A DNA stretch of 64,000 nt from sequence record ON528737. The stretch is one strand, 5' to 3'. The stretch's first letter is position 1. The number at the start of each line of letters is the position of its first letter. Below, one piece after another: positions 27,444 to 31,124 of the stretch. The position numbers and the translations under genes are program-made. The notes beneath the pieces were generated by a model. The model was not told the DNA's origin and made no database searches. It saw only the letters and a list, made by a program, of their open reading frames with translations. Source of the DNA: Shigella phage ESh27.

Positions 27444-28436
27444 ATGTTACCTGTCGTCGGAAAACTTATTTCTCCAAAAGAACTGGCTGAGATTATTCCT
27501 TTGTCGGAAGCTTACGCATCACAAGTGGCTTCTCATCGCGAACAAGTTAATTCGATTATGAATGGTGAAGACCCACGCAAACTTATTGTTGTAGGTCCTT
27601 GTTCAATTCATGACCCTATTGCTGCTGTTGAATACGGCAAACGTCTGGCTGAACTTCAAACTCGTCTTCCTAATGTTCTGTTAGTGATGCGCGTTTATTT
27701 TGAAAAGCCTCGAACTACCGTAGGTTGGAAAGGTCTTGTAAATGATCCATATCTTGACGGAAGTTTTGATATGAACCACGGTCTTATAGTTGCACGAACA
27801 TTGTGTCGTAAACTTCTACGTATGGGACTTCCATTAGCAACTGAAGTATTAGACCCATTCACGATTAAGTATCTTTCTGGTATTTTCTCATGGGTTGCTA
27901 TTGGCGCCCGTACGACTGAAAGTCAGACACATCGTGAAATTGCTTCAGGTCTACCGATGTGCGTAGGCTTTAAGAACGCAACCAATGGTTCTATTAAAGT
28001 AGCTACAGACGCGATGTATAGTGCCGCCTGGCCTCATCGGTATATGGGTATGGACGTCGATGGTACTGTAGGCATTGTTGAAGCTGAAGGTAATCAGAAT
28101 ACGCATATCGTATTGCGTGGCGGGACCAACGGCCCGAACTATCATTCTTCTGATATTCAAGAAGCTTCTAACAAAGCAAGGGCAGTAGGTCTGAATCATT
28201 ATGTAATGGTTGACTGTAGCCATGCAAACGCTGATGGGCATTATAGCAATCAAATTGGTATTGGTAAAAATTTAGCAGCTAATGATTTGGTCAAAGGAAT
28301 TATGATAGAATCGTTCCTACATGAAGGAAATCAAAAAATTTCTGATAATATGTCCTATGGCGTTTCCGTTACCGATGCGTGCATCAGTTGGGAACAAACT
28401 AAAGAGCTGTTAACTTATATTAATAAGGTTCAATAA
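27444..28436 (+). CDS. 3-deoxy-D-arabino-heptulosonate-7-phosphate (DAHP) synthase, type I-alpha (AroG/F/H-like)
   Basis: 330 aa; GPCSIHDP, YFEKPRTTVGWKGL, GARTTESQ, DCSHAN, ESFLHEGNQ, TDACI motifs colinear with E. coli AroG; AAGGA SD 5 nt upstream. Confidence 0.9.
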   Translation: MLPVVGKLISPKELAEIIPLSEAYASQVASHREQVNSIMNGEDPRKLIVVGPCSIHDPIAAVEYGKRLAELQTRLPNVLLVMRVYFEKPRTTVGWKGLVNDPYLDGSFDMNHGLIVARTLCRKLLRMGLPLATEVLDPFTIKYLSGIFSWVAIGARTTESQTHREIASGLPMCVGFKNATNGSIKVATDAMYSAAWPHRYMGMDVDGTVGIVEAEGNQNTHIVLRGGTNGPNYHSSDIQEASNKARAVGLNHYVMVDCSHANADGHYSNQIGIGKNLAANDLVKGIMIESFLHEGNQKISDNMSYGVSVTDACISWEQTKELLTYINKVQ

Positions 28437-29017
28437 TGAAAGCTAGCACATACCTTCAGATTGCATATCTGATTTCTCAAGAATCAAAATGTTGTTCATG
28501 GAAAGTAGGTGCCGTCATTGAAAAAGATGGACGTATCATTTCTACTGGGTATAACGGTAGCCCGGCAGGTGGTATAAACTGTTGTGACCATGCTACTGAA
28601 CAAGGTTGGTTGAAGAATAAACCAAGCCCGGTCATCGTTGCTGGGCATAAAGAAGGCACTACAGCATTTGGACGGGCCGATAATTTTGTTTTGGCTAAAG
28701 AACATCGGGCTGCTCATAGTGCATGGTCTGCTAATAACGAAATCCATGCGGAACTGAACGCAATTTTGTTTGCAGCTCGTAAAGGTAATTCTATTGAAGG
28801 TGCTACGTTATATACGACGCTTTCTCCGTGTCCTGATTGCACTAAAGCTATTACGCAGTCAGGTATTAAAAAGGTTGTATATGCAGAATTATATGACCGA
28901 TCTCCTGAAAATTGGGCAGACATTCTAAAACAAGCTGGTATTGAAGTAATTCAGTACTCTCGTAATAATCTTCGTTCTCTGAATTGGGAACAAATCCGAA
29001 ACTTTTGTGGTGAATAA
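28436..29017 (+). CDS. cd: dCMP deaminase
   Basis: 193 aa (T4 Cd 193 aa); zinc motifs HAE and PCxxC (SPCPDCTKAI); follows accessory block. Confidence 0.92.
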   Translation: MKASTYLQIAYLISQESKCCSWKVGAVIEKDGRIISTGYNGSPAGGINCCDHATEQGWLKNKPSPVIVAGHKEGTTAFGRADNFVLAKEHRAAHSAWSANNEIHAELNAILFAARKGNSIEGATLYTTLSPCPDCTKAITQSGIKKVVYAELYDRSPENWADILKQAGIEVIQYSRNNLRSLNWEQIRNFCGE

Positions 29018-29018
29018 T

Positions 29019-29315
29019 ATGATTTTAACTGAACAAGAAACTGTGGTTCTTCGTGAACGTATTAAAACTATTCTGTCTGTAGGCGTTCATTGTGTTGTAT
29101 TTGAAAAGGCTAACGGTGATGTTCGTACGATGTTTGCTTCGCGCGACGAACTTGAAGTCAAATACGAAAATAACAATCCGGCAACAGAAGTTCGTTATGA
29201 ACCTCGTGAATCAGTTCGAGCATTCGATACCAAGTTAGGTCAGTGGCGTTCTTTCCGCCTTGATAAAGTAATTTCGGTTGATGGTACTCCGGTGGAACGT
29301 TTGCTTCTTATGTAA
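29019..29315 (+). CDS. hypothetical protein (98 aa)
   Basis: ATG 29019 just after cd stop; track shows a GTG-extended start at 29007. Confidence 0.45.
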   Translation: MILTEQETVVLRERIKTILSVGVHCVVFEKANGDVRTMFASRDELEVKYENNNPATEVRYEPRESVRAFDTKLGQWRSFRLDKVISVDGTPVERLLLM

Positions 29316-29705: not shown

Positions 29706-29713
29706 TATAAATA
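29706..29713 (+). promoter_or_regulatory. possible late promoter TATAAATA upstream of rIII
   Basis: Exact TATAAATA directly after gene 31 stop, ~118 nt before rIII ATG. Confidence 0.3.
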
Positions 29714-29829
29714 ACTATATGAAGAGAACACTCTTCTAAGCGGTAGCCTACAACTGAGAGACTTGTCGAAAGAAGGTGAAATTCAGACGAACGTGGCTAC
29801 TAAATATTATCTCGAATTGAGAATTTAAA

Positions 29830-30078
29830 ATGATTAAACAATTACAACACGCTCTTGAACTGCAACGCAACGCATGGAATAATGGCCACGAAAACTACGG
29901 CGCGTCAATTGATGTTGAAGCCGAAGCACTGGAAATCCTGCGATATTTCAAACATCTGAATCCAGCACAGGCCGATCTTCGTGATATCCTGGCTCAGAAA
30001 GATGAATTGAAATATGCTAAGCCTCTGGCTTCAGCAGCTCGTAAAGCAGTTCGTCATTTTGTTATTACCCTGAAGTAA
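29830..30078 (+). CDS. rIII: rIII lysis-inhibition accessory protein
   Basis: 82 aa (T4 RIII 82 aa); position after gene 31. Confidence 0.85.
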   Translation: MIKQLQHALELQRNAWNNGHENYGASIDVEAEALEILRYFKHLNPAQADLRDILAQKDELKYAKPLASAARKAVRHFVITLK

Positions 30079-30448
30079 GTTAAATCGAGGAGCCGTCGAA
30101 TTGTCTGATTATCGATTTGCGAATCGGTATGTTTTAGAAGTACCGCCCCGACAATTTTACGGTGTACCTCTTGAATGTTGTTCTTATAACGGTAAGTGCA
30201 TGCTACCCCGAGGTGATGGCTAATCGGGAGTACGCCTCAAGGCCTATATATCCATCAGTATATATCTTATCCTCGAGAAATCGAACCCGGAACCTTTAAG
30301 CTAACGGTGTGCAACAGATAAGAGTTATAAGGTATGATGACGGGTTTATGGTTATCCTGTCGTTAAATATCCAAAACCTATGTTCCCCTTGAGGGCTTGA
30401 GCAGGCAATGTCAATAAGTCCTGCATTTTCATTTAAAGAGAATTTATA

Positions 30449-30625
30449 ATGGCAAAACAAACTAAAGCAAAGAAAGCAGTTGAAAAGAAAGTCGGTGATT
30501 CTAAACGCGCTGGATACAAGCGTGGGTCGAACTCTCGTATTAATCAAACAGTTGAGAAGATCATGCGCAGAGCACGTGCAGTTCTTCGAGATGATGCTTC
30601 TCGTTTTGGAAAGGTTGTTGCATAA
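30449..30625 (+). CDS. small basic protein (58 aa, Lys/Arg-rich)
   Basis: ATG 30449, stop 30623-30625, followed at 30631 by a perfect GGGAGAC-UUCG-GUCUCCC terminator; below the track's length cut-off. Confidence 0.5.
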   Translation: MAKQTKAKKAVEKKVGDSKRAGYKRGSNSRINQTVEKIMRRARAVLRDDASRFGKVVA

Positions 30626-30630
30626 TTTTA

Positions 30631-30652
30631 GGGAGACTTCGGTCTCCCTTTT
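30631..30652 (+). terminator. rho-independent terminator after small basic-protein gene
   Basis: GGGAGAC-TTCG-GTCTCCC hairpin followed by TTTT. Confidence 0.7.
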
Positions 30653-30684
30653 GTGTGTTTAGGGCAGAAAAAGTTTAAAAAGAT

Positions 30685-30713
30685 GTTTACTCTCCTGTAG
30701 GATGTGTTACTAT
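30685..30713 (+). promoter_or_regulatory. early sigma70-type promoter (paralogue A cassette)
   Basis: -35 GTTTAC, 17-nt spacer ending GATGTGT, -10 TACTAT. Confidence 0.55.
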
Positions 30714-30755: not shown

Positions 30756-31124
30756 ATGAAAATCAATCTGAACTCATACATCGAATGTAAAGACCACGAC
30801 GGTTATAAAGCTATCGAAATTAAAGAATTCCAGTGGATGTTATACAAAGAGCAATTTGAGATCGTAGGTTGTATGACCCCTGAAGGTCCTTCAAATGATT
30901 TCTCTTGGAAAATTGTGTTAGCAAACTTTTTCACAGGTGACACATACGAATTAAAAACTATTATTACCGGTAAAATTCGTTCAGAAACATATGTTGACGA
31001 AGAAACTGGTTACTCTGAAGATGTTACATGGTATCAAAATGGACGCATTACAGCAGATAACCTTATCGAAAAAATGAAAGCCAAAGGTGTTTTAAATTTA
31101 GACAATTGGATTAAAGTTGCATAA
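30756..31124 (+). CDS. hypothetical protein (122 aa), paralogue A
   Basis: Own early promoter 30685-30713 and GGAGAATAAAATG leader; shares CMTP-containing core with the next ORF. Confidence 0.55.
   Translation: MKINLNSYIECKDHDGYKAIEIKEFQWMLYKEQFEIVGCMTPEGPSNDFSWKIVLANFFTGDTYELKTIITGKIRSETYVDEETGYSEDVTWYQNGRITADNLIEKMKAKGVLNLDNWIKVA

Follow-up and report, generated by a model that had tools for sequence, protein, structure and literature searches.

Several described systems bear on a small, highly basic phage gene and on the RNA that precedes it. The N-terminal peptide of the lambda N protein is an arginine-rich-motif RNA-binding peptide that binds boxB, and gp32 of phage T4 represses its own translation at a pseudoknot in its leader, as ribosomal proteins likewise do at messenger RNA (mRNA) leaders. 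Closest of all to the gene considered here, a 58-codon open reading frame (ORF) of Shigella phage ESh27 (sequence record ON528737), is gene 30.9 of T4, whose in vivo expression, together with that of the neighbouring gene rIII, was reportedly studied by Driukas and Nivinskas in 2003. We examined this ORF and its surroundings within a window of 64,000 nucleotides (nt), by which we mean the whole stretch of DNA that was analysed and to which all positions refer. In T4, the 30.9 transcript belongs to the 'early' class (PMC9697503 Table S2), knock-down of the gene by CRISPRi-ART was scored 'Not Fit', that is, without fitness effect (PMC11879866 supplement), and transposon insertions at 6/6 sites led to its being scored 'Non-essential' (HIDEN-SEQ preprint supplement). 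The T4 rIII gene has early (proximal), middle and late promoters, and the RIII protein binds ribosomal protein S1 and inhibits S1-dependent RegB activation (PMC9409239). Finally, the promoter-early stem-loop (PeSL) cassettes of T4-type phages (Arbiol et al. 2010, PMC2839356; Comeau et al. 2014, PMC4122927) join a terminator to an early promoter and have been linked to the modular shuffling of genes.

Set beside these systems, the ORF is, in our assessment with high confidence, best explained as a genuine accessory gene, orthologous to T4 gene 30.9, that forms the last cistron of a unit that comprises rIII, a structured spacer of 370 nt and 30.9 and that is closed by a conserved terminator. The elements that delimit this unit are the following.

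29830..30078, plus strand: rIII (lysis-inhibition accessory protein), first cistron of the unit; phrog_1457 at E=1.6e-42, and annotated as rIII in phiC120, JS98 and T4.
30449..30625, plus strand: gene 30.9 ortholog, 58 amino acids (aa), last cistron of the rIII-30.9 unit; recognised by its ORF, annotation in relatives, PHROG match and conservation.
30630..30659, plus strand: intrinsic terminator with an 8-base-pair (bp) stem, 5 G-C pairs, a UUCG loop and a T-run; read from the sequence, with position and pairing conserved in 27 distinct relatives.

The reading frame starts with ATG at 30449-30451, continues through 58 sense codons to 30622 and ends with TAA at 30623-30625, followed by TTTTA; coordinates, start codon, sequence and translation are exactly as an initial annotation, made from the letters of the window, had given them. 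The same 177-nt coding sequence (CDS) is annotated in the nearest relative, Escherichia phage phiC120 (KNT62_gp059), in JS98 (as "30.9") and in T4 (gene 30.9; NP_049823/UniProt P17310). Its product matches PHROG 1427, a family of unknown function, over residues 1-56 (phrog_1427, E=1.4e-30). The window and T4 proteins fall into this same family, count 58 aa each and are identical over residues 15-55 (tblastn), with substitutions at a few positions towards either terminus (T5 for A5; an ending VVA in place of QKA); T4 also shares the location between rIII and 30.8 and the arrangement of the terminator. Homologs of the protein form 66 clusters, all from T4-like phages, and tblastn places a 30.9 homolog in 1005 GenBank phage records. 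The ORF is evidently the ortholog of T4 gene 30.9, already annotated, and the gene itself is already known; the novelty implied when it was presented as a gene missed by the ORF track does not hold. The omission as such was real and had a trivial cause, 58 aa being just under the 60-aa cut-off of the track, and the ORF is listed once the minimum length is lowered. Several GenBank phage genomes (e.g. OR525701.1, OL870316.1, KY290975.3) label the 30.9 homolog '1,4-alpha-glucan (glycogen) branching enzyme, GH-13-type', which on a 58-aa basic peptide is an evident automatic mis-annotation and is spreading in databases, UniRef included.

Taken singly, the ORF and the terminator match are statistically unremarkable: 37 ORFs of at least 30 aa occur within 4 kilobases (kb), so that the 30.9 ORF alone is not beyond chance, and one terminator-like site was found in 2 kb where shuffles predict 1.2. 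The coding case therefore rests on comparative evidence, for which the ORF was extracted from each of 28 related loci, giving 25 distinct homologous CDS. An ATG-initiated frame of 53-60 codons is kept in all 28 loci, and the sense frame is stop-free in 25/25 distinct CDS, as against 13/25 for the antisense frame (that of an 83-aa ORF), 7/25 for the +1 frame and 0 for the remaining frames. The median pairwise ratio of non-synonymous to synonymous substitution rates (dN/dS) is 0.31; relative to the window it ranges from about 0.12 to 0.6 and is lowest in those diverged pairs that are informative. Codon positions 1/2/3 diverge by 0.18/0.15/0.33 on average, and length varies by whole-codon insertions and deletions only, confined to the Lys/Ala-rich N-terminus. 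Hence the conservation of the frame, proposed by the initial annotation as a check in terms of synonymous versus non-synonymous changes, speaks for the gene, and its suspicion that two overlapping ORFs are artefacts is borne out, in that neither 30296-30547 (minus strand) nor 30480-30662 (plus strand) is conserved.

More distant homologs carry the same signal. A profile search of 1.84 billion representatives returned only 15 matches, all small phage proteins except for a spurious repeat protein (P0070), and provided no link from 30.9 to any characterised family. The most distant homologs retain SKRAGYKR-x-SNKR and a helix with QLxRxARKAL. One of them (P0071) sits after a DNA-ligase gene with its own TTGACC-17-TATAAT promoter and AAAGGAG ribosome-binding site, a hairpin and T-run lying downstream, and looks like a self-contained early cassette of promoter, gene and terminator; a second (P0067) lies near a Gp30_7 gene.

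It could be argued that the 58-codon frame is untranslated and that its conservation reflects either constraint at the level of RNA, the structured RNA continuing into it or the terminator region being involved, or an antisense gene, namely the 83-aa ORF at 30296-30547. The adjoining sequence is indeed demonstrably structured RNA, the antisense frame stays open across the CDS in the 13 of 25 relatives noted above, and the T4 protein has gone undetected by proteomics. Against this stand the unbroken sense frame in all 25 sequences, the clustering of substitutions at third codon positions with a dN/dS of about 0.3, and the whole-codon nature of the insertions and deletions. Moreover, distant homologs with 45-60% identity retain the protein motif despite diverged DNA, one with a promoter and Shine-Dalgarno (SD) sequence of its own, and the antisense ORF extends into the leader, where the T4 sequence differs. 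An untranslated frame is, on this balance, very improbable, and 30.9 can be regarded as a genuine protein-coding gene under purifying selection.

The terminator had been described as lying 5 nt past the stop codon, which is where it is found: the hairpin A-GGGAGAC-UUCG-GUCUCCC-U occupies 30630-30649 and is followed by the tail TTTGTGTGTT. All 27 distinct downstream sequences from relatives contain a GC-rich hairpin of 8-10 bp and a T-run, 4-15 nt past the stop, and the relatives employ at least five distinct self-complementary stems (GGGAGAC, GGACUCC, GGGAACC, GGGGCUCC and GGGACUC).

The encoded protein is small (6.5 kDa) and strongly basic, with 10 K and 8 R against 5 D/E, a net charge of +13 and an isoelectric point of 11.35. 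Three parts can be distinguished, a disordered Lys/Ala-rich N-terminal tail, a near-invariant SKRAGYKR-x-SN-x-RIN motif and a long Arg-rich helix, and the invariant residues are S18, K19, A21, K24, S27, N28, R41, R43, A44, V45, R47, G54 and K55. In an AlphaFold2 model built from a 36-sequence alignment, residues 4-15 fall below 50 in the predicted local distance difference test (pLDDT) and the helix at 29-53 reaches about 90. Scans of the peptide yielded 0 Pfam families at E<=1, 0 NCBIfam families at E<=10 and 0 PADLOC-DB families at E<=10, the last being a weak test since that library covers defence systems rather than phage counter-defence. The best profile match in the PDB, to a helix of SlmA (E~0.4), is at chance level and was discounted.

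From composition, the initial annotation had suggested a nucleic-acid- or ribosome-binding peptide. Our best inference is that 30.9 is a small nucleic-acid-binding, probably RNA-binding, accessory protein, an idea that fits its composition and the modelled disordered tail with one Arg-rich helix. It is reminiscent of the arginine-rich-motif peptides in being short, highly basic and predicted to be largely disordered save for one Arg-rich helix, and in being a phage early protein encoded beside conserved RNA hairpins; it differs from them in having neither sequence similarity nor defined nut-like sites, so that the analogy is a functional one only. At an early stage of infection the small protein would bind nucleic acid, RNA most probably; it may fold on its target in the manner of arginine-rich peptides, and might serve host take-over or counter-defence while being dispensable on laboratory E. 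coli.

A related suggestion is that 30.9 is a ribosome-associated factor, substituting for or adding to the small basic ribosomal proteins, in keeping with its S1-binding neighbour RIII. Its size, charge and extended architecture resemble those of small ribosomal proteins, and its cistron shares a transcript with rIII, the product of which binds S1 and prevents RegB activation (PMC9409239). Yet no ribosomal-protein family is matched in Pfam or NCBIfam, and sequence and profile searches of the PDB, ribosome structures included, retrieved no ribosomal chains and no match to any chain. The family is confined to T4-like phages, with its 15 representatives among 1.84 billion proteins, and knock-down or disruption of the gene carries no fitness cost. 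We regard a ribosomal role as improbable, and the reading of 30.9 as a small accessory nucleic-acid binder is preferred.

The spacer that separates rIII from 30.9 gives the locus a further dimension. The initial annotation had placed the gene after an ORF-free region; such a region does exist (30079-30448, 370 nt), although it is not mere background and consists instead of conserved structured RNA. Between 30084 and 30443 we find a mosaic of covarying RNA modules, which are, in order:

30084..30178, plus strand: leader module W, nested stems enclosing a UGCG-loop hairpin, also in T4; alifold consensus of 15 distinct sequences.
30187..30327, plus strand: leader core, a 141-nt multi-helix structured RNA; covariation alignment and covariance model.
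30337..30382, plus strand: leader module X, a putative H-type pseudoknot; covariation of stem S1 and partner preference of stem S2.
30382..30399, plus strand: leader module Y, a small hairpin, GUUCCCCUUGAGGGCUUG; present once in the window, recurring in relatives.
30401..30424, plus strand: leader module Z, stem GCAGG...CCUGC; sequence comparison.
30425..30443, plus strand: weak hairpin AUUUUC/GAGAAU, tentatively proposed, which would occlude a poor SD (AAGAG, 8 nt before the ATG); minimum free energy (MFE) structure of the window and of T4.

The core came to light in a BLAST search of the spacer, in which gap positions 110-256 are 90-93% identical in T4-like phages of Klebsiella, Edwardsiella and Enterobacter, the rIII proteins of these core-sharing phages being only 65-78% identical to that of the window. 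An alignment of 19 distinct core sequences (A2) folds into 43 predicted base pairs in 8 helices. Overall, 98.5% of cells are paired and 16 pairs show compensatory double changes, values that were reached in 0/500 shuffles, and controls with slid partners pair at 26-41%. The core comprises a covarying closing stem, a GAAA-tetraloop hairpin and the invariant single-stranded stretches CAAGUGCAUG and GCUAACGGUGUGCAACAGAU; many G-U pairs and the GAAA loop assign the RNA to the plus strand. A covariance model (R1) matches once per genome at about 35 T4-like loci and metagenome contigs, with 105-178 bits; one further metagenome match (L097) is a chance 20-mer inside a CDS and was discarded. The MFE of the whole spacer is not unusual (z = -0.98), neither strand standing out, and only comparative analysis makes the structure visible.

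The fold could not be attributed to a described RNA. A permissive Rfam 15 search of 3 kb plus 311 nt gave only chance-level matches (E>=0.02), far below gathering scores and none of them on the core; ARAGORN found no tRNA or tmRNA in the leader; and the searchable literature contained no described RNA for this spacer. We likewise rejected the idea that GGTTCGATTTC, on the minus strand, is tRNA-like, ARAGORN being negative and the G-U pairs and GAAA loop fitting the plus strand only. The invariant 20-mer of the core is unmatched in 185,579 bacterial or archaeal genomes and the spacer shows no similarity to E. coli genomes, which argues against mimicry of a host RNA by sequence. As an RNA structure, the conserved and modular leader is well supported by these comparisons; it matches no Rfam family and is possibly new. 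Within the family the core behaves as a discrete insert. The slot between TCTTGAATGT and TATGATGACG is polymorphic and holds the core, a different 45-nt element or nothing, and T4 lacks exactly this piece; the extra 141-nt core accounts for the window having a spacer of 370 nt and T4 one of 244 nt.

Covarying stems together with invariant junction and loop nucleotides in a 5' leader constitute a conserved aptamer-like fold, of the kind by which a riboswitch class is recognised. It is worth considering that the core is an autonomous functional RNA, be it a riboswitch aptamer, a self-cleaving or processing element that splits the rIII from the 30.9 mRNA, or a stable non-coding RNA, with 30.9 a mere neighbour. 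Such a role agrees with the core being some 90-93% identical across phages whose rIII proteins share no more than 65-78% identity, with a pattern typical of aptamers and ribozymes, with placement on the mRNA strand as judged from the G-U pairs and the GAAA loop, with behaviour as a cassette in a polymorphic slot and with the lack of an Rfam match. Conversely, no ligand, cleavage site, promoter or terminator belonging to the core was identified; nor was an expression platform based on alternative pairing, other modules separating the core from the ribosome-binding site (RBS) and its position varying. The folding energy of the whole spacer is ordinary, T4 and other lineages have lost the cassette yet keep 30.9, so that it is not required, and the high identity could in part reflect recent horizontal exchange of the cassette. 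On balance an autonomous core is a tentative possibility that we rate below the account in which the leader is a structured part of the rIII-30.9 transcript.

The remaining modules show similar hallmarks. In W, compensatory changes convert GCCGU/ACGGU to GCCAU/AUGGU, GAAUUGUC/GACAAUUU to GAACUGUC/GACAGUUU, and AUCGAUU/AAUCGGU to AAUGAUU/AAUCAUU. At the start of W, 10 nt past the rIII stop, lies GGAG (30088-30091, plus strand), the recognition motif of the RegB endoribonuclease; this motif adjoins the very gene whose product reportedly inhibits S1-dependent RegB activation.

In X, stem S1 is formed by AUGACGGG/CCUGUCGU; in stem S2, GGUU/UAUGG of the loop pairs with AACC/CUAUG. One A-rich loop, GUUAAAUAUCCAAAAC, is conserved. 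S1 is paired in 83% of cells with 28 double-change cells, a result obtained in 0/500 shuffles. S2 occurs in 16 distinct strand variants and pairs better with its own partner than with the partners of other phages (5.44 vs 4.11), with the stem being only 4-5 bp long in the type shared by the window and T4. X is found in nearly all relatives, T4 included, upstream of the core in Klebsiella-type phages and downstream of it in the window. The comparison with T4 gene 32 is apt in so far as each of the two T-even phage genes has, in its 5' leader, a pseudoknot or other structured element that is conserved, nucleic-acid binding by 30.9 being putative; X differs in having no sequence relation to the gene 32 pseudoknot and no Rfam match. 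Coding interpretations of this region were rejected: a 10-codon AUGAUG... frame inside X shifts in frame and length between phages, and upstream in-frame AUGs in Klebsiella-type phages (MYFSKMED...) are out of frame or stopped in two of the loci (L023 and L019).

Variants of Y in relatives include CCCUUAGGGG and CCUCUUAGAGGG, and in some cases the hairpin is located at the spacer's 5' end. At the position of Z, Klebsiella-type phages have a longer GGGAGC...GCUCCC stem, taken as equivalent by position rather than by alignment. A UCC...GGA hairpin analogous to the proposed SD-occluding one occurs in other lineages, and that occlusion remains a weak suggestion. Module order differs between lineages, and the spacer has the appearance of small RNA cassettes that have been shuffled. 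Other lineages possess modules that the window does not, among them a UGUACGC-loop hairpin, the 45-nt element (CGTCAGAAAAG...TAAGTC) and a long stem, GGGAGC...GCUCCC, that bears several GAAA loops.

How the leader relates to the gene that follows it can be approached through their co-occurrence. An intact 30.9 ORF is found in 34/35 genuine core-bearing loci, 42-165 nt downstream of the invariant 20-mer, the exception being a short metagenome contig in which a deletion takes out the RBS and the first 22 codons of 30.9. Conversely, 30.9 is present without the core in T4, PM2 and others, and its protein sequence shows no difference according to whether a phage carries the core. Because distant homologs lack the long leader and T4 lacks the core, the 30.9 protein is independent of the core RNA. 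Translation of 30.9 would start at the weak SD that ends the long conserved structured leader, and this arrangement indicates that expression of the gene is probably under post-transcriptional control.

The contig with the deletion (L101; QZLZ01027750.1, 1537 bp) is otherwise near-identical to the window. Hairpin Y (CCCCTTGAGGG) is there fused to codon 23 of 30.9, with stem Z, the RBS and the first 22 codons removed, and it represents either a natural loss-of-function variant or an assembly artefact.

It is tempting to speculate that protein and leader are coupled, the 30.9 protein binding one of the RNA modules, whether in autogenous translational repression or in a small ribonucleoprotein. 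Nearly all of the Tevenvirinae-type relatives examined, T4 among them, have X upstream of 30.9, the core loci have an intact 30.9 ORF downstream in all but the one case described, the weak SD sits within a small hairpin at the end of the leader, and 30.9 looks like an arginine-rich RNA-binding peptide. Nevertheless, distant homologs have short, unstructured leaders with a strong SD, and a protein nearly identical in phages with and without the core provides no protein-RNA co-variation. The shifting module order fits independent elements better than a single protein-binding platform, and synteny within a conserved block can explain the co-occurrence. We thus hold leader-protein coupling to be doubtful, though conceivable. 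The same caution applies to the broadest proposal, in which the spacer belongs to a hitherto undescribed family of modular structured RNAs found only in T4-like phages, with a riboswitch- or ribozyme-like core and with 30.9 as regulated output or protein partner, the whole forming one early post-transcriptional module or small ribonucleoprotein; we judge this unlikely, and favour the reading of 30.9 as an accessory gene that closes the rIII unit.

The signals by which this unit would be transcribed and separated from its neighbour are, together with the next gene:

29706..29713, plus strand: TATAAATA, a T4 late-promoter consensus motif directly after the gene 31 stop and upstream of rIII; read from the sequence.
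29782..29810, plus strand: sigma-70-like promoter candidate TTCAGA-17-TATTAT, proximal to rIII; consensus scan, 9/12 matches.
30685..30713, plus strand: T4-type early promoter candidate for gene 30.8, (G)TTTACT-N16-TACTAT; read from the sequence against the PeSL consensus.
30756..31124, plus strand: gene 30.8, opening the next transcription unit; Pfam Phage_30_8 at E=2e-43.

By analogy with T4, the unit of rIII, spacer and 30.9 would be read from an early promoter proximal to rIII, and the sigma-70-like candidate is, going by the T4 literature, likely to be that promoter. Downstream, the consensus given for the T4/PST pair of PeSL cassettes is TTTACW-N17-TAYWAT (PMC4122927), which both TTTACT at 30686-30691 and TACTAT at 30708-30713 fit. 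The candidate starts about 35 nt beyond the terminator hairpin. The arrangement in the window resembles a PeSL cassette, with a GC stem-loop and, no more than about 40 nt beyond it, the candidate early promoter of T4 type (TTTACT...TACTAT), between small accessory genes; the difference lies in a spacer of 16 nt rather than 17 when counted from TTTACT, the length being 17 if counted from GTTTAC. The terminator would thereby appear to close the rIII-30.9 unit and a new early unit to start with 30.8, terminator and following promoter insulating the former from the latter.

Not all observations favour this account of 30.9 and its unit, and the following count against it. Mass spectrometry failed to detect the T4 protein (PMC9697503 Table S2), with the caveat that a K/R-rich protein of 6.5 kDa gives few usable tryptic peptides. 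Overall confidence of the AlphaFold2 model is modest (pLDDT 68.8), and searches of Pfam, NCBIfam, PADLOC and PDB gave no family, fold or structure match for RNA or ribosome binding. The number of sigma-70-like consensus matches upstream of rIII is not above chance expectation, so that the promoter assignment is based on the T4 literature and on matches no better than chance; the SD-occluding hairpin is thermodynamically weak and unremarkable (z about 0). Finally, distant homologs of 30.9 do without a long leader, as T4 does without the 141-nt core.

As a discovery, 30.9 is ordinary, being one of many conserved non-essential T4 early genes of unknown function. With its own terminator, strong purifying selection and invariant basic motif, it is nonetheless a well-delimited candidate for a small T-even phage protein of host takeover or RNA binding. 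The structured leader is the feature more worthy of follow-up than the gene, since it occurs in a tractable phage family, among relatives of one of the best-studied phage genomes. If the core senses a ligand, acts as a ribozyme or serves as a platform for protein binding, it would represent a new class of RNA in a model system open to experiment, and gene 30.9 would gain a functional context that can be tested.

The surroundings of the unit are those of a T4-like phage (Mosigvirus), with 99.2% DNA identity to Escherichia phage phiC120 at the locus and about 950 phage records matching this stretch. The plus-strand gene order is cd, 31.1, 31, rIII, the 370-nt ORF-free spacer, the 30.9 ORF, the terminator and 30.8. 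The order rIII - 30.9 - 30.8 is common to the annotated regions of the window, JS98 and T4, with phiC120 also compared, and rIII precedes 30.9 in 28/29 sequences (the 28 related loci and the window), the exception being a truncated locus. Gene 31.2 of T4 and JS98 is absent from the locus in the window. The longest ORF of the 31.1 homolog (29007-29315, plus strand) begins at GTG and overlaps the end of cd (28436-29017, plus strand) by 11 nt; phiC120 annotates the 31.1 start 2 nt past the cd stop, which gives rise to a minor start-codon ambiguity in the window.

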